A DNA stretch of 64,000 nucleotides from Roseibacillus sp. (GTDB lineage: Bacteria; Verrucomicrobiota; Verrucomicrobiia; Verrucomicrobiales; Akkermansiaceae): assembly GCA_051251855.1 (NCBI GenBank), contig JBPOGI010000007.1:198863-262862 (forward strand). The letters are read 5' to 3'. Positions 4,720 through 51,612 of this stretch are shown here, one piece after another (positions within the stretch are counted from its first letter, which is position 1; each line of letters begins with the position of its first letter). Position numbers and translations under genes: made by a program. A model generated the notes under the pieces. That model was given only the letters and a program-made list of their open reading frames with translations. It was not told the DNA's origin and did not search any database.

Positions 4720-5329
4720 AAGTTGTTGTTGTTGTGTGTTCTTTCTCTCCTTATGGAAAAATCGAGCTCAAGAATGAAACGTATTACACAACCAAAAGTC
4801 AATATATAAACAGATCCCAAAGAACACAAAGCGTCTGCTGTGAACAGGAACCCTCAAAATAAATTAGATGAAATTAACCATCATACTCTTAAAAGTATAT
4901 TTTGAGAACATCGCCCTACCCGATTGAGACTATAAAATAGAAACTCATCACTAAAAGAGAAGGAGCCATCAGGAACTCCAACAAAGATTCCTAACATCCC
5001 CACGACACTTCATCGGTTCAGATGACAGAGAGAGTCATCCCTTCTGTCAGTTCATGCACACTTTAAACTTTCCCTAACAAAATCACGCCCCCAGCTTTGG
5101 CTCCCTTGGAAAGGGAACTTCCAGTCTCAAACATTTGCGAACTCGTCGTCCAACTCATGAGCGATGCCGAGGTAGAGCTGGCTATCCGACACGCGAGCTT
5201 CCCTGACAACCTCGTCACGATCGCCAACACCAACGAGGCAACAGGACTCCCCATCGACCATCCTCCTCGCTAGCCTTTTGGCTAGAACATTTCTCTTTCA
5301 CAGACGGGTAAAGCAACTCAACGTTTGGC

Positions 5330-7870: not shown

Positions 7871-8144
7871 CAGCCCATCTAGCACACCAACCTCCCTTCT
7901 TATTCAGCTAGGCAGAGAAATGGGTGAGCGGTCTTTTCAAGCCGCCACCCTATCACCCAGAAAGTTAAGGGTAGGCCTGCTCTCCTCAAAATCAGCTATT
8001 TCTGTGGTGATTCGTTCATTTTCCTCGAAACAGAATCCTCACTCTGCGGCTTAAAAAGCCACGCTCCTATTTCAAGGCCCAAGTCTAACGGCTCCTTATC
8101 ATTCTAGCTCTGGCGAACGACACTCACAGTTCGGGACATATCAG

Positions 8145-32955: not shown

Positions 32956-33084
32956 AAGAGAGAGAACGTGCCAGCTCTTTGCTTTCTTTGCCAGAAAGGA
33001 AAAAATATCCGCTGCTCGAAAAATCAACGTCTACCACCACTCTTGAGGCTTGGCTCGAACCCGACATGTGGCAAAGCTGGCCCC

Positions 33085-34122
33085 ATGCCTCGCCTATCTA
33101 TTACCGAACTCAGCCAACAAGCTTCGGAAACACCCTTGAGCGCAACCTTTCACGCCCAATTAGCCAACCTTAGTGAAAAGGAGACCAAATCTGGCAAACC
33201 GTATTTGGAAGCAGGGATGGCGGATTCCACCGGGGCCTTCACCCTGAAGGCTTGGGCAGACCATCCTCTTTTTAAAGAACTTCAGACCCTCCCAATCGGC
33301 ACTGGTCTTGAAATCAGCGGTAAATTCACCCGCAACCAGTGGGGCATGGACGGATCCCCTTGGAAATTCAGTCTCTTGGACGAGTCCGCCAACCAAGAAC
33401 TCCTCGCCGGAGATCCCGCAACCTTGGAGCGACAGAACAAGGACTATGCAGATATCGACTCATTCGTGTCTTCCCTCAAAGACCCCCGTCTCGCCGCCCT
33501 CTCTCGCCGCTTTCTCAACGTCTTTGGAGAACGATTTCGCCGCACCGCAGCCGCTCGCCGCAACCACCATGCGCGTCGAGGTGGTCTAGTCGAACACGTG
33601 GCACAGATGATGCGGTCAGCCAATGCTATTGTGGGAGTTTACCCAGCACTCAATCGAGACCTCATACTCACAGGCGTTCTTTTCCACGATTGCGGAAAGC
33701 TCTGGGAAAACTCATACCCCGAAAGCGGCTTTACTCAACTTCACCAACTTTCCGGCGAGATGATGGGCCACATTCCTCTCGGGATTGAGCTCGCTAACAA
33801 GCTCTGGCGCGACCTGCTGCTCTCTCCTGAGGCCGAAGCTTGGACCGATCTTTCTCCCAGTTCCGAAACCGTGCGCATTCACCTCCTTCATCTCATCGCC
33901 TCCCACCACGGCACTCACGAATTCGGCTCCCCCACGCTGCCACGCACACCCGAGGCCTTCGCGTTGCACTATATCGACAACCTTGATGCAAAATACGAAA
34001 TGCTCAAAGACGCCTACGCGGAAGCCAATGAAGTAGTCCCAGGAATCCTCGAACGCCGCTTTCCCCTTCCCTCGAATCTGGTCGTTCCTCTGCCTTCTTT
34101 TAAAGGCCAAGACTCGACCTAA
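33085..34122 (+). CDS. OB-fold plus HD-domain protein (YhaM-like 3'-5' exoribonuclease family)
   Basis: The N-terminal OB-fold-like region (KPYLEAGMADSTGAFTLKAW) is followed by HD-domain motifs (HHARRGGLVEHV, LFHDCGKL, IASHHG). Start at ATG 33085. Confidence 0.7.
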   Translation: MPRLSITELSQQASETPLSATFHAQLANLSEKETKSGKPYLEAGMADSTGAFTLKAWADHPLFKELQTLPIGTGLEISGKFTRNQWGMDGSPWKFSLLDESANQELLAGDPATLERQNKDYADIDSFVSSLKDPRLAALSRRFLNVFGERFRRTAAARRNHHARRGGLVEHVAQMMRSANAIVGVYPALNRDLILTGVLFHDCGKLWENSYPESGFTQLHQLSGEMMGHIPLGIELANKLWRDLLLSPEAEAWTDLSPSSETVRIHLLHLIASHHGTHEFGSPTLPRTPEAFALHYIDNLDAKYEMLKDAYAEANEVVPGILERRFPLPSNLVVPLPSFKGQDST

Positions 34123-34296
34123 TACGGAAACCTCAGAATTTGAACTGCAATTTCTGCTCCTTTTTATAATGGAGCCACCCCAAAATTCGACACATTGTAA
34201 ATACAAAGGATATTTAATCAAGGTCTTGCAAACGGCTCGTAGATAGTTATAAGCTCCCGCAAATTCCTTTCTCTCACTCAAAAAGCCCCCTCTGAC

Positions 34297-34938
34297 GTGG
34301 TAAAACTCAAAATAGCTCCAGAATTCGCACCAGAAACTTCAGATTTATCTGAGCTTGATGACGCGACCCTCGTAGCTCAGTGCCAAGCTGAACTGCCCGA
34401 TAACCTTACCGCTTATCGGGAGCTCGTAAAACGGTATGAGGGACTGATATTCAATACGTGCCGACGAGTGATCGGCTCTCAGGAAGACGCCGAAGAAGTT
34501 ACTCAGGACACCCTTCTTCAGATCTTTCACAAGATACATCAGTTCCAAGGACGCTCATCTTTTAAGACATGGCTGTATAAAATTGTGCACAATTACTGCC
34601 GTAACCGCATCTCTAAACTTGCAAGGAAACGTGAGGGCCAAAATTCTTACGAAGAACATGCCGCAAATGATGAGGACGATCGCGAGGCTAACAACCGACG
34701 CGCTGCGCTCTCTCAAGCCGTCGAGGAAGCCCTCGGCAAACTAAAAAAATCAGAGCGTGAGGTCATTGTGCTGAAGTTTATGTCCGGACTCACTCTGCAG
34801 GAAACTGCAGATGTTTTAGGCGTGAAGCTCAGTGCGGCCAAAATGCGACTTTATCGGTCTCTCGAGTCCTTTAAAGAAGCCTACTCACGAATTGATAACG
34901 CCCCCCCCGTCCCCAACTTCCATACCACAGATGACTGA
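34297..34938 (+). CDS. ECF-type RNA polymerase sigma factor
   Basis: Region 2 (DAEEVTQDTLLQIFHKIHQFQGRSSFKTWLYKIVHNYCRNR) and region 4 (LTLQETADVLGVKLSAAKMRLYRS) are present. GTG start. Confidence 0.85.
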   Translation: MVKLKIAPEFAPETSDLSELDDATLVAQCQAELPDNLTAYRELVKRYEGLIFNTCRRVIGSQEDAEEVTQDTLLQIFHKIHQFQGRSSFKTWLYKIVHNYCRNRISKLARKREGQNSYEEHAANDEDDREANNRRAALSQAVEEALGKLKKSEREVIVLKFMSGLTLQETADVLGVKLSAAKMRLYRSLESFKEAYSRIDNAPPVPNFHTTDD

Positions 34939-35182
34939 AGAAACATTCAACCCCGACGACTCCGTCTTCAACGACCTCTTTGCTGAGGCCGGCTGGAATG
35001 ACGTTGCTAAGGCTCCCCCCAATGAGCGCAGAGTCGAAGAGATCACTCAACGTGCCATCTCCGAGACAATCGTCAAAGAGTCGAGCTCTTTCCTATTCCT
35101 AGGCTTCAGTTCTGCCCTTTCAGGGATTTTTGCAGCCTTCTTTGGCTGTATCAGCGACAACGACGAAGACTACAAACCTTGA
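34931..35182 (+). CDS. Putative cognate anti-sigma factor (small single-pass membrane protein)
   Basis: ATG 34931 overlaps the sigma stop codon (ATGACTGA). The product is 83 aa with a C-terminal TM helix (FLFLGFSSALSGIFAAFFGCI). There is no zf-HC2 motif, so the assignment rests on position only. Confidence 0.45.
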   Translation: MTEETFNPDDSVFNDLFAEAGWNDVAKAPPNERRVEEITQRAISETIVKESSSFLFLGFSSALSGIFAAFFGCISDNDEDYKP

Positions 35183-35221
35183 TTTTCGCTGGCGACTCTC
35201 TCATTGTCGCCACGGAATATC

Positions 35222-36169
35222 ATGATCTTCGCGCAAACTCCTCCGCCAACGAACCCTGCTGCCACTGAGTTGGTAGCGAAAACTGCCCAGACAATCCAAG
35301 GATCGGGTGAGCAAATCACCGACCCCCCCCCTGGATTTTCACTGAACTACATCTTTGAAAAACTCCGAGAAGCCTTTATTGAAATGGCTGACGGAGCGAT
35401 CAGCGCCCTGCCCAATCTTGTCATTGCAGGCGTTCTCTTATTCGTCGGTCTCATTGCCGCCAAGGTCATCCGCGCCGTCCTCACCAGCACCTTCAAGAAA
35501 ATCAATCTAGATAGTGCATTCGATAAGATGGGGCTCACCGAGATTTTCTCCAAAATCGGTCTCAAGGCCGGCCCCAGCTCAGCAATCCCCAAGCTTCTCT
35601 ACTGGCTCATCCTCCTCGCTTTCATTAAGGTAGCCGCCGACAAGGCCGGAATCGAAGACATCTCCACTCTCCTTGATCAAATCATGGCCTTCTTGCCCAA
35701 GGTGCTGACCGCCTCGATCATTCTTTTGGTAGGCTTCATTGTTGCCGACTTGATTCAGAATGCAGCCTTCCGCTCGCTCGATAATATTGGGCTCGAATAC
35801 GCAGGCAGCCTCTCTCGCATCCTTTTTGGCTTCATCTTCATTCTCGTTCTCACCGTTGCCTTTGCCCAATTAGGCATTGAGACCGAACTTCTCAACTCCT
35901 CTGTAAAGATCGTTCTAGCAGGTTTGGCCCTCGCACTTGCGATTGCGCTCGGCTTGGGATTGAAGACCCTTGCCGGTCACATCGTCGCAGGGGTCTATGC
36001 ACGCGACCTCTACAAAATTGGAACCGAGATTCACTACGACGACCTTCCGGCCAAGGTCTCTGGGGTAGGCCCCCTCACAACCAAGCTGACTCGGGACGAT
36101 GGCACATTCGTGATTATTCCTAACACCATTATGGTCAACGAAGTCATCCGCGGTCGCACCGAAAACTAA
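35222..36169 (+). CDS. MscS-family / conserved-TM-helix mechanosensitive channel-like membrane protein
   Basis: Repeated TM-helix units (LPNLVIAGVLLFVGLIAAKVI; LPKVLTASIILLVGFIVADLI) are followed by a C-terminal beta-domain motif (GTFVIIPNTIMVNEVIRG). ATG 35222 is preferred over TTG 35204. Confidence 0.65.
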   Translation: MIFAQTPPPTNPAATELVAKTAQTIQGSGEQITDPPPGFSLNYIFEKLREAFIEMADGAISALPNLVIAGVLLFVGLIAAKVIRAVLTSTFKKINLDSAFDKMGLTEIFSKIGLKAGPSSAIPKLLYWLILLAFIKVAADKAGIEDISTLLDQIMAFLPKVLTASIILLVGFIVADLIQNAAFRSLDNIGLEYAGSLSRILFGFIFILVLTVAFAQLGIETELLNSSVKIVLAGLALALAIALGLGLKTLAGHIVAGVYARDLYKIGTEIHYDDLPAKVSGVGPLTTKLTRDDGTFVIIPNTIMVNEVIRGRTEN

Positions 36170-36196
36170 CGTTTTCAGACAAAGAAAAAAACCGTG

Positions 36197-36222
36197 TGAC
36201 TTATTCGCAGATCTGCGCGTCT
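36197..36222 (+). promoter_or_regulatory. ECF-sigma-like promoter motif, copy 1 (TGACTT-N15-CGTCT)
   Basis: TGACTT at 36197-36202, a 15-nt spacer, and CGTCT at 36218-36222. The first RNA hairpin begins exactly 8 nt further on, at 36231. Confidence 0.45.
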
Positions 36223-36230
36223 GTATGAGT

Positions 36231-36304
36231 GTCCCAGCAATGGGACGTGCGTTGTTGTTCCCACGAGCGGGGGTTGGTTTCGACCAGCCCTCGCTCACTT
36301 TTTT
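36231..36304 (+). ncRNA. Putative small RNA, copy 1
   Basis: Hairpin GUCCCA-GCAA-UGGGAC (36231-36246). Invariant linker GUGCGUUGUUGUUCCCAC (36247-36264). A 14-bp terminator stem with a UUCG loop (36265-36296), then ACUUUUUU. Confidence 0.6.
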
Positions 36305-36343
36305 AAGACACGTGCTCTAGACGAAAGTTTCTTAGAAACGCTG

Positions 36344-36369
36344 TGACTTTTTACCAGGGCCGTGTGTCT
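36344..36369 (+). promoter_or_regulatory. ECF-sigma-like promoter motif, copy 2 (TGACTT-N15-TGTCT)
   Basis: TGACTT at 36344-36349, a 15-nt spacer, and TGTCT at 36365-36369. A hairpin begins 8 nt further on, at 36378. Confidence 0.45.
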
Positions 36370-36377
36370 ACATTCAC

Positions 36378-36474
36378 GTCCCAGAGATGGGGCATGTTAT
36401 ATCCCAGCAATGGGATGTGCGTTGTTGTTCCCACGAGCGGGGGTTGGTTTCGACCAGCCCTCGCTCACTTTTTT
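36378..36474 (+). ncRNA. Putative small RNA, copy 2 (extra 5' hairpin)
   Basis: An extra hairpin GUCCCA-GAGA-UGGGGC (36378-36393) comes first. Then AUCCCA-GCAA-UGGGAU (36401-16), the same 18-nt linker (36417-34), the same terminator (36435-66) and a U-run. Confidence 0.6.
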
Positions 36475-36514
36475 CAAGATGCTTCCTTTTTACGCCGGCT
36501 GTCTAAAAACGGTG

Positions 36515-36540
36515 TGACTTATCCCAAGGTCTTCGTGTCT
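36515..36540 (+). promoter_or_regulatory. ECF-sigma-like promoter motif, copy 3 (TGACTT-N15-TGTCT)
   Basis: TGACTT at 36515-36520, a 15-nt spacer, and TGTCT at 36536-36540. A hairpin begins 8 nt further on, at 36549. Confidence 0.45.
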
Positions 36541-36548
36541 CTAGTTAT

Positions 36549-36622
36549 GTCCCAGCAATGGGATGTGCGTTGTTGTTCCCACGAGCGGGAGTTGGTTTCG
36601 ACCAGCTCTCGCTCATTTTTTT
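36549..36622 (+). ncRNA. Putative small RNA, copy 3
   Basis: Hairpin GUCCCA-GCAA-UGGGAU (36549-64) and an identical linker (36565-82). The terminator stem carries a compensatory G:C to A:U pair (GGGAG...CUCUC). It ends in seven U. Confidence 0.6.
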
Positions 36623-36921
36623 CAAGGGAGAGAGATAAATTGAAGGACTTCCAGTGGACGGATGCTCCTGCTTCTTATCCTTACTAAAGCAATCAGAACG
36701 AGGCATGACGAGGTCAATGCCCTCCGCCCCTCGCTATTAGACCTTTGACGACTAGACCTTTAAGGACTGGAACTGGTCGGTGCATTCCTGAGGCTCACCC
36801 CTTGCTTCGTCACTCGGATTTACCGTTCTTCTCCACTCTTGCTGGACGGCTAGAATGGAGAAGATGGAACGAGTTTATCGATTGAAAAGAGGCCGGCTTT
36901 GAACGCACTTCTTTTCCCCCA

Positions 36922-39900
36922 CTAGAATTGCGGCAAGGGATAGATGTGAGACCTCTTGTCATCTCCCGGCAAGACTTTCACCATCACTGCTCGATGTGAT
37001 TCAATCAAGAGGTCCGCGTCACGGTTCAAGAGTTGCGAGTCGTTCAAATCCAACCAGTAGTTGTAGGGTCCAGCGTCGGCCAACATGTATCCTAAATACC
37101 CCGTCTTATATTCGGTGACACCCACCTCATCAACAACACGGTCGCCTTTCCAGAACAGAAGCTCGGAACTCTTCGTTGGAGAAGCTCCGCCATCAAAACC
37201 AGCAGCCAAGGTAAGATCCCGGCCATTAGCTCCCGCCGGCGATTGGTCCAAAGGCCACATCGCCCCTGTGAGGTTGAAGCCTTCGTTCATGGGAGCCGCT
37301 TGGTCATAATCAGCAACCATTCCGAAAGTGAACTGCTCCACTGGAGGAATCGTCGCGGGAGCAAGCGCATCCCCAGAGCTCTTGGGATGAATCCAATTTC
37401 CCATCGAAGGATCCAGACGGAGGCCTCCCTGGTCAACTTGAGCGAAAGGATCAGTCACCCGAATCCATTTTGTATCGGGAGCCGTGCCAACCAACATCAA
37501 GGTTTCGAATCCAGGATCACTCTTTCGAACATCATAGAAGAGCAGTCGGGTCGCATCCGCTGGATTTGAGTCCTCTTCGCCGGCAAATGTCGTCGTCTTA
37601 TCGAACACTTCATCGATGGTGCGATAGCGAATCACTTCGTAGCTTGCTCCATTAAGTCCACTATCGGTGGGCAAACCATCGAGAGTATTCAGGGAGGCCA
37701 CTGCGGTGTCAAAAATATCACTATCGTTGAGAAGAGAGATCGTTCCAATACCACCGCCCAGAATATCGAAGCGGTGTCCTTCAAAAAGACCGCTCGTAAT
37801 CTGGAGATACTTTTCACCATTGCTTCCGACAACGGATGACAAGTCCACGTTCCCTACTGAGTCGCTAACATCTAAGATGATGTCTCCGGTTTCAGAGTCT
37901 GTCGCAAGGGTGAGAACCCCACTACCGAAGGTACCACTCAACTCAGGCTTCTCTTTAAAGGGAGAACTAAAGCTGAGGCACTGATAGTCGCCAAACAGAT
38001 TGCACTGCCAACCAAAGGTCCTACTGTAGAAGACTTCATCTGGAGTAATGGTCTCACTGCCGTCGACATCGATCTCCACCTTCATTCGAACAACTCCATT
38101 CTGAGGAGTCACCGGTCCGGTGGAATTTTGAATATCGCTATAGATAACTTTCTCGGCCTCCACTGGAACATCAGCGTCCGTGATGTTCACAGTAGGCGTG
38201 ATGTCAGACAAGTCACTCCACACAGTCGGGGTATCCAAGGTCGCAGCCCCTTGCAGGGTGTAAGTCACATCATTGAGACCACCACGACGACGCATGAACT
38301 GGGCAGTGACGCTTCCATCAGGAGCCTTGGTGAGACAGAACTCGCCGTGTCCGGGAAGTCCATCACCAGGGTTTAGGCAGAAGGCATACTCCAGAGCATT
38401 CGGATAGATATCTCCATCAGGATTGTCAGCCAAGCCATCGTTGGTTCCGGGGTTTGAGGTGTGGTCCAGCGCACTATCGTTCGTGTCTTGGAACTCGGTA
38501 TAAGTGCCGGACTTTGGAGAAGTGAAGCCAAAGTCATAACTCGCGTTGGCTCCTTCTCCTGATGGATCGGCCTGCTGGTCGGTGGCGGTTTGACCCTGGA
38601 TGGCAATAGCCGGCGCTCCCGCAGGGTCGTTGCTATCGGTCAAACTGGTGGCCGTTCCACTTTCGATCACAGTAGGCTCGGTTCCTGTCGGAGTTTGCAC
38701 GGAGAGAACATAAGTCGGCTCTGCGCCTGCCCCGTCTCCATTGTAGTCCTCGTCCATGAGCAGATTGCCAAAGTCATAGTGACCTGTTGTGTCTGTTACA
38801 TCAGTGAGAGAGACAACCGTTCCGTCCGGATAAGTGATGGTCAAGGTGACCACCGCACCTTCGATGGCAGGTTCGCCACTCTCTTGCACACCATCATTGT
38901 TGCTGTCGAACCAGACGTAGTTTCCAATCGCAGCAGGATCCTTGTAGTAGCCAAAGTCGGCGGTGTCATCGTCGGGATTTCCTGAGTCGATGGTCACAGG
39001 ATAGCCGCCGTCCTCCTGACTGTTGCCATCGGTGCCAGGATTCGGTCCCACGCTATGCCAGTAACCGTCGAGTTCATTGCCGTCGTCCGTCACCACCACG
39101 ATGTAGTCATCGAATGGAAGGCCATCGAAGAGATACTCCCCATTCGCGTCCGTAGTGGTTGTTCCAACCGCCGGATCACCTGAGTCCACAATCCCGTCGC
39201 CATCGATATCGCGATAGAGCACCACGGTGACGCCTTCGATTCCAGCTTCGCCACCGTCGAGAACTCCGTCACCATCGACATCATTCCAAATGGTCGTTCC
39301 AATGCTTCCTCCGTCAGTCGAAACATAACCGAAGTCTTGGTCCACATTATCCGGTGCTCCACTGGTCAAAGTGACCTCGCTCTCTGAATCAAGTCCCCCA
39401 TCGTTGTCGAAGGTATTATCAAGGGCTTCCAAGACGCCACCCGGGTCAAAGTTGCTGTCAGCAATCTTCACCGTGTAGTCGGCGCCGGCAGCACCGCTGC
39501 CATCATCAAGAGGTAAACCTCCGAAGTAGTAGCTACCGTCAGGACCGGTCTCGGTCACTGCGATGAGCTCACCTTGTTCATCGTAGAGTTCGACCAACAC
39601 CCCGGGGAGACCCGTATCGGACTCGTTCTGGTCAGCGCCCCCATCGGCATCCAGCCAGACGTAGTTGCCAATCGAACCGGTCTCGGCCGCAGGCTGGAAT
39701 CCGAAGTCTTGAGCATCGTCATTCCGCGTCGTGGCATCGGTGGTGTCTAAGCTCAAGGTTGAGGAGTCATCCGTTCCACCATCGCTTCCGCTCTCAGTTG
39801 GAACCGGACTAAACTCTGGAGGCAAGGTCGAGGTATCGACCTGCACCGTGTAGGAGATGCCCGAGTCAGGATCGAGGTTCGGGAAATTGTAGTTTCCATT

Positions 39901-42900
39901 CTCGTCCGTAACGGTGGTCCAAGTCTCGGTTCCATCGGTCAAAGTAACCGTCACTCCAGCCAAGCCAGGCTCATTCGCATCTTGGGTGCCGTCACCATCA
40001 AGATCAGCATAGATGGTGTCGCCAATGCTACCGACAGGTTCACCAACAGTCGCGGGAGGATAGCCGAAGTCTTGGTCGAGGTCGACCGGTGTTCCGCTGC
40101 TCACAGTCACCGAGCTGCTACTGTCTCCATCATTCTCTGGGTCTCCAGTTGGAGCCGCATCATAGCCATCTGGCAAGGTCGTGGTATCGACTTCTACGGT
40201 GTAATCTCCTAGAGGTAACTCTGGGAAGAGGTAGTTTCCGTTCGAATCCGTAACCGTGGTCGCAATCAGAATCGTGCCAGTCACATCGTAGAGATTGACC
40301 GTGATACCGGGAAGCCCCTGCTCGCCGGCGTTCTGGCTACCATTGGAATCGTCGTCCGCCCAAATGGTATCGCCAATCGCGCCCAAGGTTCCATCAGCTG
40401 GGTAGCTAAAGTCTTGCGCTCGGTTATCCGGAGCGACATCCGTGAGAAGCACCGGACTCGAGGAGTCGTTATTGCCATCACTATCGTGTGTCGCAGCGGT
40501 CTGATAACCAGCGGGAAGAGTCGCGGTATCGACTTCGACTACGTAACCACCGAGTGGCAGCCCGTCAAAGAGGTAGTTCCCGTTCGAGTCGGTCACTGTA
40601 GTTGCGATGATGTCGTTAGCATCGACAGAACCGTCGCCATTCACATCATCCGCGAGGCCATCACCATCGTCATCGGCATAAAGATTGACCACCACATCGG
40701 CGAGCCCAGGCTCGTTCCCTTGAGTGGACTGGTCGCCTCCGCTGCTATCGAGGTCTCCCCAAACGGTATCGCCAATGGAACCGAGGGCTTCACCTGAAGT
40801 GTAGCCAAAGTCCTGATCGTCTACGTCGGGAGTTCCCGCATCAATCGTAGTCGCGCTCAAGTTCGGAGTGCCTGCGACGCCATCGGCATCATAGGTTTGC
40901 TCAAGGCCACTTAAGACTCCATCAGTATCGTTCACCCAGACGATGTAGTCATCATAAGGCAAGTTATCGAAGATGTAGCTTCCATCGCTGGCAGTAGTGG
41001 TCGTGTTGATGATGGGCTCTCCCACATCCCAAACTCCGTCTCCATCGAGGTCATCGATCAAGCTCACCGTCACTCCGCCGATCCCTGGCTCACCCGCATC
41101 TTCTACCCCGTCTCCATTGAGGTCATTCCAAACGGTGTCGCCAATGCTTCCGAGAGGAGCAGTCACTTCCGGCTGATAGCCAAAGTCCCCATTGAGGAAG
41201 ACATCTCCTGGAGCCAGCACGATAGGCTCGCTCTTACCATCATTGGCAGAGAAAGCGGTATCCGTTTCTGCAAAGTGATCCGGATCTCCCGTCTGAAGGT
41301 AGTCGCTTCCCAGAATATCATGACTCGCAGTCGCGCTATCGGTCACCTCAACGACATAGGCATCAGGAACCAAACCATCGAAGTAGTAGCGACCATTGCT
41401 ATCGGTCGTCGTCGTGCCAACAAGGTTATCATAGACGCCATCACCATCATGATCATTGTAGAGGCTCACCTCAACACCCGCGACGGGCGCTTCGCCATCA
41501 TCTTGAATGCCATCACCATCGGCATCGATCCAGATGAAGTCTCCCAGAGCCGCGACCTCCGCACCGGCAGTCGCCGTCGGGTCATTCACCTCACCCGCAG
41601 GATTGATGTTGTAACCAAAGTCCGCCGTAGAGTTGTCCATCGGCTCAGTTCCACCCAGAAGCACTGGGTAGCCATAATCACCTGCACCGGGGTCATCGGA
41701 ATCATCCTGATTGCCAAAGTCGCCACCCGAATTGGTGAAAGGGCTTTGGGTAAAGCCAGTGGGTAAGGTCGTCTCATCGACGTTCACATAATACTCCCCC
41801 GCAGGAAGGTCAGTGAAGAGGTATCCCCCATCGGCATCCGTGTAGGTAGTAGCCACCACGTTGCCGTCGCCGTCATAGAGGTCGACTTTCACATTCGCGA
41901 GACCCGGCTCACCATCATCCTGATAGCCGTTGCTGTCCTCATCATGCCAAATGTAGTTACCAATCGTTCCAACCGGAGGACCAATGAGTCCAAGGTCAAG
42001 GTCGGTATCGCTATCACCCGCTGCCAAAGTGACCGTCTGGGTACGACCCGTCATCACATCCGCATCACTGTCGGTGTTGGTATCGGCAACCGTATCATCG
42101 CCATCGGCGTTCTGCTCGGTAGGCCCGTATCCGTAAGGCAAGGTGCTGTAGTCAAATTCCACATAGTAGTCACCGGCCAAGAGGTCATCGAAGAGGTAGT
42201 TTCCTTGGGCATCGGTCGAAGTCACGCCAACCACCGTGTCGGTGGCCGCATCATAGACCCGCACAGTGACACCCGGAACTCCGGACTCGCCGGGATCCTG
42301 AAGGCCATTGCCGTTGCCATCAATCCAGACAAAGTCACCTAGGGAGGCCAAGTCTTCACCAAAGTTGAAGTCCACTCCGCGCTCACCACCCGCAAGGGTG
42401 ATTCCGGTAATGGTATCCGAACCTGCCGTCCCTTGGTCAGCAGTAGTGCTGCTGGGAGAAGCAGTGGTATCAACAAGGTCCCCTGCGTCCGTCGTGGTCG
42501 AGAACCATCCTTCAGGTTGCGTCTCGGTGACATCGTAAGTTCCAGGATTGATTCCCGCGAAGCTGTAGTTGCCATCGTCATCGGTGACGGTGGTCAGCTC
42601 AACAGCGTTCCCGAAGATATCGGTTCCAGTCAAAGTGATGGTCACGCCAGGAATACCCGCCTCGGTGAGGTCGAGGTTTCCAAGATTGTCCGCACCGGCG
42701 TCGCCATCGGCACGGTCGTCATCGTGATAGACCGTTCCGCTCAAGCTCGCGAGTTGCTCTAGAATCACATCAACCTCTGCTGGGTCGCTGTTGTCGCCTA
42801 AGTCGGTCTCCGCACTAGTCGTTGCAATGTTCGCAATATTGACCTGAGTCTTCTGCCAATTGGAAGTCATGTAGGCCTGGTCAACCGTGAAGGTCACGGT

Positions 42901-45900
42901 GACGGAACCAGTAGCTCCCGGCGTTAAGATTCCTGCGTTGTAACTAAAGTCATTGGCTGAGCCAAGTGTGCCCGGCGTTGCCGACTGAATCACCAGACCA
43001 TCGGGCAAGGTATCCGAGATGACCACGTCCGCGGCATCGCCGTTACCATTGTTGCCATAAGTGATGGTGAAGGACCCACCTCCGTATAAGTCGACCACGG
43101 CGGTATCAGCCACCTTCTCAATCCAGACGTTAGCCAAGCCATTGGCATCGGTAATAACGGTCAGCGCGCTGTCATCGTTATTATCGTAATCGCTCTCCTG
43201 TCGATCGTTCGCAATCGTAACCACGTTGTTGAGGCTGTCGCCGGCCACGCCACCAGTTTCGGTGACCTGCACAGTAAAGCTTCCACTCGCTCCGGTCGCT
43301 TGGTCGCCGAGATTCCAAATCAAGGCCGTCAAACCACTGCCCTCGTAATCCGCATCTACAGTTGGTGAGCCACTCGAGCTCACGTAAGTCGTATTAGCGG
43401 GTAGAATATCGGTCACCACTGCGTTTAGCGCTCCCTGTGGTCCGAGGACCTCCCAAGCAATATCATAGTTGATGGTCTCGCTTGCTCCCTCTTTAACCGC
43501 TCCGGTGTCTACCAGCTTGCTCACAGCCAAGTCTGTTAGGCGCAGGTTGATGGAATCTTCCGCCGTATTATTGGCGGTGTTGTCATCGATCTCTGGGGTG
43601 CTCGTCGCAATTGAAATGGTGTTATCAATAGTGCTCTGACCAACGGGCGCAGGATCGTCCACCATCACCTGGAAGGTGAAGCTAGGCACTTCTTCCACCA
43701 CATAAGTCGCACGCCAAGAATTGAAGCAAGCCATCGCTGACTCATCGGTGCTGGTCATGGTCACCCGCAAAATCATTTCCGAATTTGCAATATCGATAGA
43801 TGAGATATCAGCAAAACCGTCTTCGAGTTCGGCCGGACCAAAGAGAGTCGTGGTGTCGGCTGCGTTTCTCAACTCAAACGTCGTCGTTACCGCATCGTCT
43901 GCTTCGACGCTGACAAGAAGTCGGTCCCATTTCGTCAACGTTCCTGCGGCAACGACCGGATAGTCTTCAGTGACAATCGTCTCGTATGCTTCGAAACCTG
44001 AACGCAATTTCGCAACAATGACTCCTGGGCGAGTGGCATCACTTCCTTGGCTCACTATTCCGAAAGTGGCAGTCGCGCCCCCCATACCATCGTAGACATA
44101 AGTTGGATTTGTGATTCCAGGTGAATAGTTCACCCCTGCGTTGAGCTGACTTCCGTAGAAGAGCTCCAGAATGCCGTCTCCATCGATGTCGTAGCTATTC
44201 ATTCGCTGCCCACCATTTTGACCTTGGCGGAAGATGTATCCATTTCCTTCGATGGGACTCAGCTTACAATACTCCCTCAGAGTGCCATCGGCATTGGGGT
44301 AGAAAATGTAGGTGGCTCCACGGTTGCTGGCATTTCCTGATGTGTTGACTGAAGAGGTAATATCATCATCGTTCGCCGCCGAGACCGCAAACTCACTCAG
44401 TCCATCGCCATCCAAATCGCCGACAGCCGCAACTCCGTATCCGAAGTTATCATTGGCATCCAAAGCCAGAGCGGGAGTGGTTAGATTCGAAATCTTACTC
44501 ACCTTTTTAAGTTCACCCGTAGTCTCGAGAAGAACGATATATGCCGCCCCTGTCGCAGTATATCCATCATCGTCACTCGAAGCTCCAACCACCAGGTCCT
44601 CCGCTCCGTTGCCATCCAAATCTCCAACAAAACTCAAATCGAATCCGAACAAGTCGCCGGAATCCAAATAACCACTCAGTTCCGCACTACGAGCCGTCTG
44701 CATCTTGATAAAACTCGTAACATCTCCTGTCATGTGGCCATTGATGTCTCTTTCCAGCCAGAAGAAGTAGTATCCTCCCCGCGAAGAATCCAGGCTCACA
44801 TCTCCTGCAACCAAGACGGAATCACCGCTACCGGCAAAGTCCTCAATGTAAGTGAGTCCTCGTCCAATTCCCACGGAACCCTGATCGTCAGCTCCGGTCA
44901 CACCACTGGCGGTAACGAAGCCACCAGTTCCAGAAACTATCTTCTTCAAGTCCTTCAACGATCCATCCGTATCTAGGAACAAGAGATAGACCGCGCCACG
45001 GCCCACGTTTCCAACATTCGTTCCATAGGCTCCAACCGCGAGATCAGGGATTCCATCGCCGTTCACATCGCCGATTGGCTCCAAGGAATATCCAAAATAG
45101 TCAAAGGCTGAGAGACCGGCCAAAAGACCACTCGCGGCAGCCGTTCCCTCCGCAATTTCAACGCTAGATTTCACGGAGCCATCAGCATTCATGAAGTTGA
45201 TCAGAACGGCTCCTTGATTCACATTGACCAAGTCCATCTCATTGGATTCATCCAAATCACGGAACGGAGAACCGACTGCGTAATCAATCACGCCATCATT
45301 GTCGATATCACCCACGGCATGATAGGTGACTTGATGGGAGCGTGTGTGCGCTCGATCATCGGTAACATTGGGGATATCATTATCAACGTTTGTGTCAAAG
45401 GCGACGTGTTGATCGTAACCAGCATCGAGTGCGCTCACTTCAGACAAAAATGACTCAACCTCCACTTTAGGCAGTGGTTCGAGACAAAGAACAGCGCCAG
45501 GGCTTCCTGCCGGCTCTTTTCTAACAAAGACCCGATGGATGGTGTCCGCAGAATCATCACCCAATACATTGTCCAGTTCCCAGTCATCACCATTGGCACG
45601 AATGGCCCAGTTGGCTACACCATCCTGATAGAAAGGAAGTTCGGTGAGCGCATAGTCCCCCTCATCATCATTCTCCTCTGTCGCAAGGGCCGGAATATTC
45701 GCGGTATGGCCAGGCACACCAACCCAGTTTCCATCGTAATGAAAGTGATTGAAGTCGCCTGTGCCAGTCTTCACATAATCATTGCCCCTCATGAAGTCAT
45801 CGGTCGTCCGAATGTTTACCACTCGCTCATGATCGGAAGTCCGTCCTTGGAACAGCATCGTGTCAAAACCAAGGGCGGCAGCCAACCCATTGCCAGCATG

Positions 45901-48900
45901 ACCCCAGTTCTCTGACGCGCTCTCGTCATCACCCAAGGCGTTGGAAGCAAAGAGCGGCAAGTCGTTCGTGCGCACTGCGAGTTCGGGATTGGTTCCTCCC
46001 GCATGCACGTAGTTGAGAATCATCAACCATCCACCACCATCGGTATCACCATCGACGTATCCCTGGAAGGACTTACCATCAATATTGAACCAATAGACTC
46101 CGGTAGCCACCCCTCCGAGACCAGCAATGTCAGTGAAGGGATCATACTCAGTGCCCGTGCCAAATCCATTGCTACCAGCAAAGGTCGCGGGAGCGGGAAG
46201 ATTGTCGAAGAGGATTTCGAACCCAGTGGGGTCAGAAGGATTGGGGCTCCAAATAGCAGTAGCACCATCAGGAACCATAAGAGAACCCGGAACGTAGCTG
46301 GTGCCCGCTGGAATGACTTCTGAAATCACCACATCGTCAGCGGCCGCTTTACCGGTGTTATTATACTCAATGGAGTAAGTGAGAACTTCTCCCGCTTCGG
46401 TCCAAGTCTCGTCTTGATCGGACTCATTGACCACGCTCTTGCCAATACTGATCTCAGGGCGATAGATGCGGGTGGAGACTTCGTCGGCATTGTTCGCAAG
46501 GAAATCTTCGGCGGGGTCGGCATCGGTTTGGTTATCGACAACCAATGTCGTATTGTTCGTCACGGTATCACCATCAGCAGCAGCGTCAGAGACATAGCCC
46601 TGGAGGGTGAAGGTGACAATCGCTCCTACCGGCACTCCGATATTGCGATAGTAATCAGTATCAACGGCGTTAGCAGTGGTGCCGAGATACCAGGTCACGG
46701 TATCTCCTCCAGCGGGAGAGAGATTGTCCAAGGTCGCACTAATCGGGAAAGTCACGGGAGATCCGGTTCCATCTTCCAGAGTCACACTCGCGCCATCATC
46801 ATCGGTCGCCTCAACTGTTGCGAAACCATTGAAGGCAGTCGGATGCGGAACAAAATTGGCCGGCAGAACATCTTCCACCTTCACCCCGTAGGCAGTCTGA
46901 GTTCCAGTATTGGTCAGCTCAATGGTGTAGGTAATCGGGTCGCCAGGACGCAAACCGGGAACACTCCCCTCGGCACTAGCTGACTTCGCAATCGCCATAT
47001 CCACTCCGGGAATTTGGGTCATCGCGGTGGCTGCATTGTTGTTTGGTCCATCGGTTGGATCCTCAGGGTCGTCACTCTCTTGAGCACTGGTGGAAATCGT
47101 AGCGGTATTGGTGTAAGCCGTTCCAGGAGCGGTGCCCCCCGGAATCGAAGTGCTCACCAGAATATCAGAATCACCGGCATTGGCAGGAACAGTTCCCACC
47201 TCAAAGGCAATGAAAGTGACAGTCGCTGTCGGGGTAGAACTCCAACCGAGGCCAGAAGTCCCGGGCGTGAAGACCGGCGCGGCGGGGGCATCGGAATAGT
47301 AGGCTACCACTCCAGAAGGAAGAAGCACGCTATTGAAAGTCAGACCCGACGGAATGGCATCAATGATGTAAACATCAGGAGCTTCGTTATTCGTTCCATT
47401 GCTGTAAGAGATCGTCCAAACGACAGTCTCTCCAGCTTGGGCAACGCTCACTGCAGACTTGGTGATTTTAGGATCGGGGAATGGAAGCACCACTTCTTGC
47501 TCATCGGTGTTTCCATACTCGTTATCCTCCACATCAGAGGTTGTCACCTCTGCCACGTTCGTCAGAGTATCGCCTGCGGCACCTGAGACATCGACCTGAT
47601 AACTGATGAAAACATCGGCAGACTGCCCAGGGAGAACTCCCATGGCACCGCCATCTTGGGTCAAAGAGGTCCAATTGAGAACACTATCACCCCCAGTAGG
47701 GTCATCTAAAATAGCATAGCCCGGTGTGAGCATCTGGGTGCTCCCTTCCACGAAGGTCATTCCCGCAGGCAAAGTGTCGGTGATGACCACGTCGTTGGCC
47801 TCATTCAGACCACGGTTAGCCACCAACAGAGTAAAGGTGATGCGATCTCCATTCTTGGGCTCGGTCGTGCTGGCAATTTTACTGAGGGTCAGGTCCGGGT
47901 TGGCCACGGTAACCGGATCACTATCGCTCACAACGACAGCAGAGCGTGCGTTCGAAGCAAATCCCTGCACGGTATTGAGAACCTCAGTGCCTGAAGCGGT
48001 GGTGGAAAGCGGAACCACAACGAAGCTAACACGCCCTCCCTCACCGGTGAGCAAATCGCTCTTCAGCCCAGGAGAACCAGCAATAAGAACTTCAACGATC
48101 GATGAGCCATCTGCGTTCGTAGTGATGGTAACATTAGGATCAGCCTTGATATCAAGCTCACCGGCGGTCTGACCATTCGCAATCGCAACGTCATTCCACT
48201 CATGCCGAACTCGGCGAAGAGTAACATCCTTAGGAAGATAGTCGGTAATGGTGACAATATCATCGGTGAAGCCCGAGTTGTTAATATAGTCCACATTCCA
48301 AATGAAGCGCTCACCCGCAGTAACGAGTTCCTTGTTGCTAGACTTGGAAATTTGAAGACCAGGGAAAGATTCAACCGTGGTGCGCACCTCATTGCCGACA
48401 GCCTGCAAGTTGGTGTCGGAGAAGATGACGAGCTCGTTGAAAATCACGGTGCCCTCAGGAGAGCCATCGGTTCCCACCGTTGTGCCGTTGTCATCATTGA
48501 CCACGGTGAAAGTCACGGTCTTGTAGGCAGCCGAGACATCAAGCTGAGGAGGCGAAAGAGTCGGGTCGTCTACCTTATAGGCAATCCAAGTTGTTTGGTC
48601 GCCGAAGGGACTTGTCCAAGTATCGTCAGATGGATCACTTGGCGTGCCATTGTCATCCTGAACACCAGGAGTGAAGTTTGCACTAATCACGCTGAAATCG
48701 ACCGGATTGAGAACACTGATTTGGTTAGCCGGCATCGAAGGTGGCAACTTATCAGTGAACCAGATTTCCTCGCCATTAGGCGCAGTCGCTTCTGAGAAAG
48801 TCGTGCGGAAGGGAATGCGATCCACCACCCAAGAATTGACAGAAGTCGCGGTGCCAACGTTGCGGTAGTTGACCTCGTAGGTCACTTCGTCACCAGTGCC

Positions 48901-51612
48901 AATGACGTTCAGGACATCGTCCTTGTTCGCTTGGAGGAGTGGAGTTCCCGAAACAATACCACTGGTCTGAATACTTGCTTCAAAGGGAGAACAAAGGTCA
49001 TCGAAGCCAGTCAGGTTCGCAGCCACAGAGTAAACCGAAAGGTTTTCAGTTCCGTTCGGGAAACCAAGCTCCATCGTAATGGTCGCTTCCTCACCCGGTG
49101 ACAACTGACGACCCAACTGAAGAGTCACGTTTCCGTTGATGGGATTGAAGTTCGTAATCGTTCCCCCGTCCACCCCTTGAATAGAGGGATATGTGGCAAC
49201 TCCATTCACGCTCACAGTCGTGAGCTGGAGGTCGACGTTCACATCACTGAACGCCTCCAAACCAACCAATCCCGAATCCACTGACTCGTTTCTAACAGTC
49301 AAAGAATACTCCGCGACCCCTGGAATCACAGTGACTGGAGTCACGCTCGCCGCTTCAGAGTCGATGTAGAATTCACCCTGAGGAGGCTTCACCCGGGTAA
49401 GGTCATCATTCTTGTAAGTAAAAGGATTAGTGAGAACCTGCAGGGTTCCGTCCGTCTTCCGGTAGACGTCAACCAAGCCCCAGTTCTCGATCCAATACTC
49501 CGAACAAGGATCGGTCGGAGCGGTCACGATGGTGTTGAAAGCTGCGTAAACACGCGAACCCGGGTCGCTTGCAAAATCAATAAAGGAAGGCATCGAAGGA
49601 TGATGCACTGCCACCCAAGTTACTGTTGCGGGCTGAGTTTGGCTCCAATCGGCAGGTGTGCCGCTTGGCAGAGCCGAATAATCGAAGACAGGGTGAATCT
49701 CAGGGTCGTCATAGGTCGGATCAGTGCCCACATAGAACCAAACCGTCGCCCCTTCCGCAGCTGTAATGTCTTCCTTACTACGGCGATTATGAAGAGAGGC
49801 CGAGACGAACTCGACTTCAGCGGGAATGCGGTCGAAATAGACGACATCATTGAGCTCAATGACTCCGCAGTTCGTATTATAAAGACGATACTCAACCGGG
49901 TCCCCTGCGACAACGGGAACCACACCATCAATGTCCAAACCACAGGGAACGTCCTGCTCCTTGGGCAAATAGTGTGGGAAATAACCAAACTTACAAAAAC
50001 AACCACCGATAGGCACATCGACAATCATGGGGAGTTCGTCGGTCAGCAGCTCAGTCTGATCGGAATCAAGTCCCGCGGTATTGGTGAACTCAGTGAGCTG
50101 GGGAATATCAGAAGCCAGGTCGACCTTGAATTCAATTTGGTAACCATCCCCCACTTCCAAGGTCCCAAAGTCCCAGTAAACACTCTGCGCCGGAACTTCT
50201 GTGGTATGAACCGTCGTGGCTGTCGAGGTGAAGACCGCAGGGATGACCGTTGTGGTGCCATCAGCATTGAACTTAGTCGCGGAGAACGTGTGACCAGGGT
50301 TGGTTGGATTGAGCAAATACGAATCGCTCGTGTCGCCATCTCCATTAGGATCGATGAGACCGGAGAGGTCATCGTAAATGACGGTGTTATACATGCGGGA
50401 GCGGTTTTGCTCATCGTAGTCGTTGCCATCAACAGGGCCAAAGGGATCGCGGATGCGGAAGGTCAAAGTGTCACTCACACCCGGGCTATCCCGAGCAATC
50501 ACGTAGTTTTCACCATTGAGTCCAAAGACGCGGGTAACCCCGGGAGCCGCAAGCGTCGCGCCTGCCTTGGTCATGTTCGGAGCAGGCTCAGAAGTAATGA
50601 TCGTCTCGACGGGAGCCGCCACTTTATCATCACCATTGTCCACATGGACGTTGGCATTGTTCTCATAAACGGTGCCATTCAAGGTTCCGTTAGGAGCCTC
50701 GACAAACAACTGAAGAACGAGAGAATTTCCAGCCTCAACCTCATCAAAATACCAAACCACCGAATTGTCCGGGAACTCGGTCATTCCATCTGGGTAAGAA
50801 GGAAGCGGATCACCCGTGGCGGCATCAGTTGTTCCATCCGCGGTAAAGATTCCCCCATCTGAAATCTGGCCAATGATGGGCTCGTCCGCTTGACCGTAGT
50901 CGGTGGGATAATCAATCCCCCGTCCATTCATAGGCAGCGTGTCCCAAACGATCACATTCTGTGCATCGACAAAGTTAGCCGAAAGGCGAACCTGATAAGG
51001 AAACTGAACCCCAGCCGGAATGGTCTCCACCGTCTTCTTATCGAAGAGAAGCACCGTCTGAGGGTTCCAAGTCACCATCATCTCACGCACCACTGGCGCC
51101 GTCGCCCCCCGCGTGTGGTCTACTCGCACCTGAATCTCTGGATAAGCCACTGCATCCAAACCACTGATATCCAAACACCCCTCGGAGTCAAAGTTAGACA
51201 TATCAAGGTCAATGAACCCCGTGATGGGAGAACCCGTGCTCACGTCCAGGAGAGTGACGTCCAAGGCATCATTTGTGCCATAGCTCGCATCCAGACAAAG
51301 CTTGTCCCAAGCATCGAAACTCGGCGGCGTGATAATTACCGAAGTCTGCGAACCTGCCGCCTGACCGGAAACCAAACTCGCGGTGCCCGCAAAGACATCC
51401 ACGGCCACATTACTCAGCACATTCGTGCCGAGCTCATCATTAAAGGTATTCGTCCAAGTTCCTTCGTTGTTGTCAACGGTTGGAGCAGCCTGCAACTGTA
51501 ATGCGGAGGTCCCCAAGCACATCACCAGCGAAAGGGCACTGAGAAACTTTTTTTTGAAGGGGGCTATTGGGGACAGATTGGGTGAGCTCAAGATCGGTTT
51601 CGTAAAGGGCAT
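36922..51612 (-). CDS. Giant secreted adhesin-like protein (4896 aa): DUF11 repeats, FG-GAP/integrin-alpha-like repeats, SdrD-B/Cna-B-type repeats, conserved C-terminal module
   Basis: The ATG start gives signal peptide ...[19 protein letters not shown]. There are many DUF11-type repeats (e.g. [48 protein letters not shown]). FG-GAP motifs include [32 protein letters not shown] and [15 protein letters not shown]. About 11-12 Cna-B-like units are present ([30 protein letters not shown]...[21 protein letters not shown]). The single uninterrupted ORF has consistent codon bias. Confidence 0.85.
   Translation of the reverse strand: [4896 protein letters not shown]
38520..42756 (-). repeat. Array of about 11-12 divergent SdrD-B/Cna-B-type domain repeats inside the 4896-aa gene (approximate bounds)
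   Basis: A recurrent pattern: G(D/N)x(V/I)WxDxxxDGxQDxxExGxxGVxVxLYD...TDxxGxYxFxxLxxGxYxV...DFG(Y/F). Confidence 0.7.
44150..45330 (-). repeat. FG-GAP / integrin-alpha-like calcium-binding repeat region inside the 4896-aa gene (approximate bounds)
   Basis: Six to seven D-x-(D/N)-x-D-G-x-x-(D/E) loops, each followed by (A/V)VG(A/S) and spaced ~60 aa apart. Confidence 0.65.

Follow-up and report, generated by a model that had tools for sequence, protein, structure and literature searches.

Tandem small RNA-like genes behind a SigX-like sigma factor operon of Roseibacillus: a candidate family of sibling small RNAs in marine Verrucomicrobiales

Short RNAs ending in an intrinsic terminator are produced in enterobacteria under the control of RpoE (sigmaE), as exemplified by MicA, RybB, and MicL, the last of which overlaps the 3′ part of a transcription unit for a protein. 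Small RNAs (sRNAs) may also be encoded in arrays of sibling genes, such as LhrC1–4 of Listeria, CcsR1–4 of Rhodobacter, PrrF1/2 of Pseudomonas, OmrA/B of E. coli, and Qrr1–5 of Vibrio; LhrC is envelope-stress responsive and has a UCCC-containing seed, and CcsR1–4 are located after a small open reading frame (ORF), depend on an alternative sigma factor, and are co-transcribed and processed. A further precedent for an sRNA driven by a sigma factor of the extracytoplasmic function (ECF) type is SigAb with SabS of Acinetobacter (PMC12153292). The SigX module of P. aeruginosa, cfrX-cmpX-sigX-oprF (ECF102), encodes, besides an ECF factor, a putative anti-sigma factor of small size and a protein resembling mechanosensitive channels (PMC7826278; PMC7641640), and oprF, which lies directly 3′ of the module in Pseudomonas, is a SigX target. 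Here we describe three tandem sRNA-like units found directly behind a SigX-like ECF operon in a stretch of 64,000 nucleotides from Roseibacillus sp. (contig JBPOGI010000007.1, positions 198,863 to 262,862, forward strand; the whole stretch is referred to as the window). Judged from comparative sequence analysis, the units make up a genuine family of RNA genes, conserved and structured, that has no counterpart in Rfam or in the literature searched. We consider it fairly probable that they constitute a new family of sibling trans-acting sRNAs, transcribed from an alternative-sigma promoter that is probably recognized by the adjacent ECF factor.

The array occupies positions 36187–36622 of the + strand and consists of three direct copies of a ~118-nt unit (Table 1). 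The original prediction, made from the letters of the window, had described three tandem + strand copies spaced by 170 and 148 bp, each composed of a hairpin, an invariant 18-nt linker, and a terminator; repeat comparison and alignment recovered the same copies, at the same positions, with the same composition. Briefly, hairpin 1 is a 6-bp stem capped by a GCAA (GNRA) loop, and its closing pair is G:C in copy 1, A:U in copy 2, and G:U in copy 3, as had been proposed. The terminator comprises a 14-bp stem, a TTCG loop, and a T-run, with a coordinated G:C to A:U change in the stem of copy 3. All three terminators were recovered by the terminator scan, and each has 8–9 G-C pairs in the stem, a 4-nt loop, and 6–7 T, the composition of an intrinsic (Rho-independent) terminator. 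Between the two hairpins, the linker GUGCGUUGUUGUUCCCAC does not vary among the three copies; as the 18-mer GTGCGTTGTTGTTCCCAC, it has three exact matches in the window, all on the + strand, against a chance expectation of 0.1. Copy 2 carries an additional 5′ hairpin with a GAGA (GNRA) loop, confirmed by folding and the terminator scan; it is inserted 3′ of the promoter-like box described below and is predicted to lie within the transcript, and one related locus (L100) has an analogous extra hairpin with a GCAA loop. Each unit folds in the proposed manner, with z-scores of −5.2 to −6.2 relative to dinucleotide-shuffled sequences, and none of 200 shuffles folded as well.

The suggestion that the units do not belong to any recognized RNA family was examined with all 4227 models of Rfam 15, applied to the whole window at gathering thresholds and to positions 36000–36950 at permissive E-values. 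No match was found in the window at gathering thresholds, and the permissive scan yielded nothing but noise at the level of the terminator. The best sub-threshold match, ctRNA_pGA1 (RF00236), reached 24.5 and 23.3 bits, with a gathering score of 45, and was rejected, the alignment being confined to the terminator: a long GC-rich terminator hairpin with a U-run is common to both, whereas the 5′ part amounts to a 24-nt to 8-nt mismatch, and ctRNA_pGA1 is a plasmid antisense RNA from an unrelated context. Full-text literature searches for Verrucomicrobia sRNAs, Roseibacillus, and the seed sequence returned nothing relevant, and no regulatory sRNA described for the clade.

To find relatives, we scanned GTDB, with one genome per species, for the exact linker. 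The 11 matches obtained are about the number expected by chance for an 18-mer; three are true and all from Verrucomicrobiota, namely Roseibacillus persicicus (L007), R. ishigakijimensis (L008), and a Verrucomicrobiota metagenome-assembled genome (MAG; L005), each with one exact-linker locus. The other eight were rejected by the covariance model as chance 18-mers. This model, of the kind proposed with the original prediction, was built from six sequences (the three copies of the window and those of L005, L007, and L008), and most further members came from syntenic contigs retrieved through orthologs of the MscS-like protein encoded upstream of the array, which form a graded series within Verrucomicrobiota. 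It detected 27 copies in 13 loci with scores of 35–107 bits, distributed over R. persicicus, R. ishigakijimensis, Verrucomicrobiota MAGs, and metagenome contigs; in the window, scanned in full with the filters off, it found only the three copies of the array. The arrays consist of 1–5 copies (three in the window, five in L012, four each in L102 and L015, two in L101, and one each in L005, L007, L008, L014, L017, L018, L095, L099, and L100), and all 27 copies run in the direction of the operon. The array begins directly 3′ of the MscS-like gene in 11 of the 13 loci, and the sRNA of R. persicicus occupies this same position; the two exceptions are R. ishigakijimensis and L095, a 2.1-kb contig on which genes are uncalled. 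The family is rare in the Joint Genome Institute (JGI) metagenome collection, where a scan with the degenerate pattern CGTTGTTGTTCCCN{3,4}GCGGG gave 78 loci with L095 as the only true member. It is thus restricted to a subclade of marine Verrucomicrobiales and, as far as is visible in the sequences, occupies one locus per genome. Copies of the same array resemble each other more, on average, than do copies of different loci (88% versus 79% identity) and share lineage-specific features, indicating lineage-specific duplication or concerted evolution.

The proposed structure is retained throughout the family. In the 27-copy alignment, which was fitted to the covariance model and to that extent favours the structure, 99.2% of the 512 stem cells form standard pairs, and 15 of the 20 pairs show compensatory (two-sided) changes. 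None of 500 column shuffles reached any of the observed structure measures, the pairing falls to 33–51% when the 3′ partners are slid by 1–3 columns, and RNAalifold independently predicts both helices. The stems are hence preserved in the homologs with abundant compensatory change, a point on which the original prediction could have failed. The loop of hairpin 1 is of the GNRA type in 24 of the 27 copies, realized by five different GNRA sequences, which suggests selection on the type of the loop. The alignment contains 62 G-U cells, and the pairing is accordingly 99.2% when read as + strand RNA and 87.3% when read as the opposite strand; the reverse strand of the window units also folds less well. 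Both observations indicate that the + strand is the functional one.

Tandem repetition with inverted repeats, together with mechanically called ORFs that overlap the units, might also be taken as the mark of a mobile or recombinogenic repeat, similar to repetitive extragenic palindromic (REP) elements or miniature inverted-repeat transposable elements (MITEs), or of a small-protein gene that starts at the ATG in the hairpin 1 loop and has a 26-codon frame in copy 1. Both are highly improbable. A dispersed element, which the original prediction had named as a possible refutation, is at variance with three copies on one strand in 64 kb and with a single locus per relative, in one orientation and at a fixed syntenic site, as well as with the single true match of the JGI scan. 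Peptide coding was rejected, as the family preserves neither the ATG nor the frame and its indels have lengths other than multiples of three: L005, L017, and L101 have no ATG in the loop, the frame is broken by paired single-base stem deletions (L014 and L099) and by 3-nt/1-nt linker indels, and the substitutions follow base-pairing rather than codons.

In marked contrast to the variable stems, the linker is nearly invariant. Its core GCGTTGTTGTTCCC shows 96.8% identity between loci, compared with 78–79% in the stems and 71% in the loop of the terminator, and the segment GCGUUGUUGUUCCC is predicted to be unpaired; a higher conservation than that of the flanking stems and the terminator loop is the pattern of a single-stranded recognition element. 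Even in L018, in which both stems have been rewritten (hairpin 1 is GUCCAA/UUGGAC, and the terminator is entirely different), the core GUGCGUUGUUGUU is intact. The arrangement typical of sibling sRNAs, at least two paralogous copies with a conserved unpaired seed, is present with three copies in the window and one to five in the related loci. These data also bear on the idea that the units are merely duplicated operon terminators or 3′-untranslated structures insulating the convergent genes for the MscS-like protein and a giant adhesin, with no function in trans. The array of the window does lie between convergent genes, and the terminator of copy 1 is the only one after the operon. Termination, though, needs neither an unpaired 14-mer conserved at 97%, nor a compensated GNRA hairpin, nor a promoter-like box for each copy, and the setting is not always convergent, the downstream genes of other loci being co-directional. 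We therefore regard this explanation as improbable.

Every copy is preceded by an A-rich tract and a box of the form tGTGAC-N18-tGTCTnTA, an element that the original prediction had not mentioned. The distance from GTGAC to the start of the model is exactly 33 nt in 21 of the 27 copies and within 1 nt of this value in 25, and the 18-nt spacer is unconserved among the orthologs. In copy 2 of the window and in L100, the extra hairpin is inserted 3′ of GTCT, so that the spacing between the two blocks is kept, as expected for a promoter. In the window, the box occurs solely at the three copies, against 0.04 expected, and a position weight matrix found no further site; in ~180 kb of family loci, GTGAC-N17–19-GTCT was found at 19 sRNA copies and two other sites, with ~4 expected by chance. 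ECF-type promoters have a −35 element with AAC, a spacer of ~16–18 nt, and a −10 element of the CGT/GTC type. With its two short blocks at a fixed spacing and its TGTC-type −10 element, a feature of sigmaE-type promoters, the box resembles ECF promoters. The ECF operon itself is preceded by a distinct candidate promoter of the sigma-70 type, TTGCAA-N16-TATAAG, which the window shares with L007, L012, and L102 in spite of the divergence of the intergenic sequence around it; the box of the sRNAs is therefore clearly of another promoter class. The spacer of copy 1 contains a perfect 12-nt palindrome, CGCAGATCTGCG (36206–36217, + strand). As an operator it was rejected as a family feature, since only copy 1 of the window and copy 1 of L101 among the 27 copies exceeded shuffled sequences, and it is probably incidental.

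A second, unrelated sRNA-like unit of ~110 nt was noticed in L018 (7987–8125, + strand), between a PAD_porph gene and rpmB. It stands behind an A-rich tract and a full extended box, tGTGAC-N18-tGTCTaTA at 7988, and consists of a ~60-nt C-rich, mostly unpaired stretch with CCCCC/CCCCCUCC motifs followed by a strong terminator (fold z-score, −7.0); it has no match in Rfam. Its presence hints at a regulon in which the box serves small RNAs besides those of the present family.

The + strand genes 5′ of the array encode, in order, a DEAD-box helicase, an HD-domain protein, an ECF sigma factor, an 83-residue membrane protein, and an MscS-like protein. Pfam searches confirmed the predicted position of the array directly after the operon formed by the last three of these genes. 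The best NCBIfam model for the ECF factor is SigX (PRK09640; 146 bits over the full length, below the cut-off of 194 bits; next model, 108 bits), and the protein is 87% identical to its ortholog in R. persicicus and 81% identical to that in the Verrucomicrobiota MAG of L005. The 83-residue protein has no match in Pfam or NCBIfam; a gene for 82–84 residues (83 in most) is found at the same operon position in all operon-bearing loci, and its product is a putative anti-sigma factor by position only. The co-encoding of this transmembrane protein and the PF05552/PF00924 protein with the ECF factor is likewise kept in all operon loci, and the window operon may be described as a SigX-like module, not a proven equivalog.

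The giant surface-protein locus that had been noted beside the array corresponds to a convergent 4896-residue ORF with 11 SdrD_B, five DUF11, seven CarboxypepD_reg, and three SpaA domains, in addition to an FG-GAP repeat. L014, L017, and L099 have genes for similar giant SdrD_B proteins, convergent with the sRNA locus and with two small genes in between. The HD-domain protein (32968–34122, + strand) has the 3′-5′ exoribonuclease YhaM as its best NCBIfam model (130 bits, far below the cut-off); in most related loci its gene is the direct 5′ neighbour of the ECF operon, and in R. ishigakijimensis that of the sRNA. Four loci have a same-strand gene of the PD-(D/E)XK nuclease family (PF20472) 3′ of the array (L008, 3058–3648 on the − strand; L012, 6380–6892; L015, 5704–6285; L102, 5326–5838), and the window lacks it; in L015, the last sRNA copy (5693–5769) overlaps the gene's called start. 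In an Akkermansiaceae MAG that has no sRNA (L020), the slot after the operon for the ECF factor, the 83-residue protein, and the MscS-like protein is filled by an OmpA-family gene (4913–6310, + strand), which recalls oprF after sigX in Pseudomonas.

Table 1. Coordinates of the sRNA-like units, promoter-like boxes, and neighbouring genes in the window
Feature	Position	Strand	Remarks
Candidate sigma-70-type promoter of the ECF operon	34226..34253	+	TTGCAA-N16-TATAAG
ECF sigma factor, SigX-like	34297..34938	+	Pfam Sigma70_r2, Sigma70_r4_2, Sigma70_ECF
Single-pass membrane protein, 83 residues, putative anti-sigma factor	34931..35182	+	Translation; operon position
MscS-like (CmpX-like) mechanosensitive channel, last operon gene	35204..36169	+	Pfam PF05552, PF00924
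Unit, copy 1	36187..36304	+
Promoter-like box, copy 1	36195..36222	+	tGTGAC (36196-36200), N18, GTCT (36219-36222)
Predicted sRNA, copy 1, ~76 nt	36229..36304	+	Hairpin 1 36231-36246; linker/seed 36247-36264; terminator 36265-36296; U-run to 36304; covariance model 106.7 bits; fold -39.1 kcal/mol, z -5.2
Promoter-like box, copy 2	36342..36369	+	GTGAC 36343-36347, GTCT 36366-36369
Unit, copy 2	36357..36474	+
Extra 5′ GNRA (GAGA) hairpin, copy 2	36378-36393	+	3′ of promoter-like box
Predicted sRNA, copy 2 core	36399..36474	+	Hairpin 1 36401-36416; linker 36417-36434; terminator 36435-36466; covariance model 106.5 bits
Unit, copy 3	36505..36622	+
Promoter-like box, copy 3	36513..36540	+	GTGAC 36514-36518, GTCT 36537-36540
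Predicted sRNA, copy 3	36547..36622	+	Hairpin 1 36549-36564; linker 36565-36582; terminator 36583-36614; U-run to 36622; covariance model 103.9 bits; fold z -5.9
Giant SdrD_B/DUF11/CarboxypepD_reg repeat protein, 4896 residues, convergent 3′ neighbour	36922-51612	-	Domain search

Altogether, each unit may be an autonomous gene with an A-rich tract, a box, and a terminator of its own. Transcription is predicted to start ~6–8 nt 3′ of GTCT and to yield an RNA of ~76 nt (~99 nt for copy 2, including the extra hairpin), in which a 5′ GNRA-capped hairpin, presumably a stabilizing 5′ structure, would be followed by the unpaired segment and the strong intrinsic terminator. No terminator was detected by the scan between the stop codon of the MscS-like gene (36169) and copy 1, and copy 1 may thus also arise by read-through from the operon, its terminator doubling as that of the operon. 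The unpaired 14–18-nt segment GCGUUGUUGUUCCC(AC) would be the functional core, most probably a seed for base-pairing with mRNAs that bear GGGAACAACAACGC-like sites. The adjacent SigX-like ECF factor would drive the sRNAs upon membrane or osmotic stress, and the copy number (1–5) would vary through lineage-specific tandem duplication. We infer the control by the ECF factor from the adjacency in 11 of the 13 loci, from the promoter class, and from the precedents of RpoE with MicA/RybB/MicL, SigAb with SabS, and SigX with oprF. A link to envelope stress and the ECF factor is plausible on the indirect grounds of this adjacency, of a box that is not of the sigma-70 type, and of the resemblance of the sigma factor to SigX.

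Several observations weigh against this scheme, and most of them would be accommodated if the units were real sibling sRNAs that obey another sigma factor or activator, the adjacency to the SigX-like operon being historical or a matter of 3′-end sharing, or if the linker were a protein-binding or sponge site; to this alternative we assign a minor but appreciable probability. In none of 12 loci does the box occur in the 200 nt 5′ of the ECF gene, and the position weight matrix did not reveal it there in the window either, so that the standard autoregulation argument for tying a motif to its sigma factor fails. R. ishigakijimensis has an sRNA with its box directly after the HD-domain gene and no ECF operon in the 8 kb of sequence covered. 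Conversely, the operon occurs with no sRNA copy in L013, L019, and L020 (identity of the MscS-like protein to its counterpart in the window, 77%, 49%, and 54%), as judged with a larger model (R2) and the filters off, and the same box lies far from the operon in L018, before the second sRNA-like unit. The −35 element of the box is GTGAC (GAC) and lacks the canonical AAC of ECF promoters, and no clear U-run is seen in the distant copies of L017, L018, and L101 (copy 2). Nor was a seed target found: scanning both window strands with RNAduplex gave a best non-self site inside the giant ORF that, at −25.0 kcal/mol, is no stronger than those of shuffled sequences (−24.5 to −26.0 kcal/mol), the start of the giant ORF has no seed-complementary site, and a search of ~180 kb of family loci for the complement of the 14-mer with up to two mismatches gave the sRNA antisense and two weak sites, none above background.

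On the other side, the sRNA directly follows the MscS-like gene in 11 of the 13 loci, the box has an ECF-like two-block architecture with fixed spacing, the layout, with an unpaired, nearly invariant segment flanked by a 5′ hairpin and a terminator, is the classical one of a seed, and the failed target search spanned just 64 kb plus ~180 kb. An ECF-type promoter for autoregulation seems to be lacking at the ECF gene; some ECF groups lack autoregulation, and ECF factors are commonly co-encoded with their target genes (PMC7826278). On balance, we favour sibling trans-acting sRNAs under an alternative sigma factor, probably the adjacent one. A bolder version, which is conceivable and which we put forward only tentatively, is that the array is the main direct output of a non-autoregulated SigX-like ECF module that acts chiefly through sibling sRNAs of variable dosage. 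If so, tGTGAC-N18-tGTCTnTA would define a small-RNA-dominated regulon, and the second unit of L018 points in that direction.

Verrucomicrobiota are abundant in oceans, soils, and guts, and the family offers a candidate sRNA circuit of this phylum that is backed by comparative evidence. If the proposal holds, it would be, to our knowledge, the first regulatory sRNA family defined in Verrucomicrobiota. Its value would lie in a first well-supported sRNA circuit of the phylum and in a handle on SigX-type promoters: the box is a possible alternative-sigma, perhaps SigX-type, promoter motif, and the consensus of SigX is undefined even in Pseudomonas. Culturable strains carry the family (R. persicicus KCTC 12988 and R. 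ishigakijimensis KCTC 12986), and the arrays of 1–5 copies provide a natural dosage series for the expansion of sibling sRNA arrays.

In comparison with the known systems, the family falls into a class already familiar, that of sibling sRNAs linked to an ECF stress module, and involves no new kind of mechanism. Like MicA, RybB, MicL, and SabS, the predicted transcripts are short RNAs with an intrinsic terminator, and copy 1 of the window resembles MicL in its 3′ overlap with a coding transcription unit. They differ from these four RNAs in having no homology in sequence or structure, as seen from the lack of an Rfam match, in being encoded by tandemly multiplied genes physically attached to the ECF operon, in the −35 element (GTGAC instead of GGAAC), and in the sigma factor, which is SigX-like instead of RpoE-like. 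With the LhrC, CcsR, PrrF, OmrA/B, and Qrr arrays, the family has in common near-identical head-to-tail sRNA genes, one conserved seed, and a copy number that varies among relatives, whereas the sequence, the fold (GNRA hairpin, single-stranded seed, and terminator), and the phylum are different, and none of the Rfam models of those arrays matches; in contrast to CcsR1–4, each copy has its own candidate promoter box. The closest parallel of the operon is the SigX module of P. aeruginosa, with which it shares the three co-encoded components and, as noted above, the best model of the sigma factor. The gene order is different, the SigX score is below the equivalog cut-off, and no sRNA array has been described for SigX; the promoter consensus of SigX is "not precisely defined" (PMC7641640). 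The slot taken by oprF in Pseudomonas is occupied here by the sRNA array, and in L020 by the OmpA-family gene.

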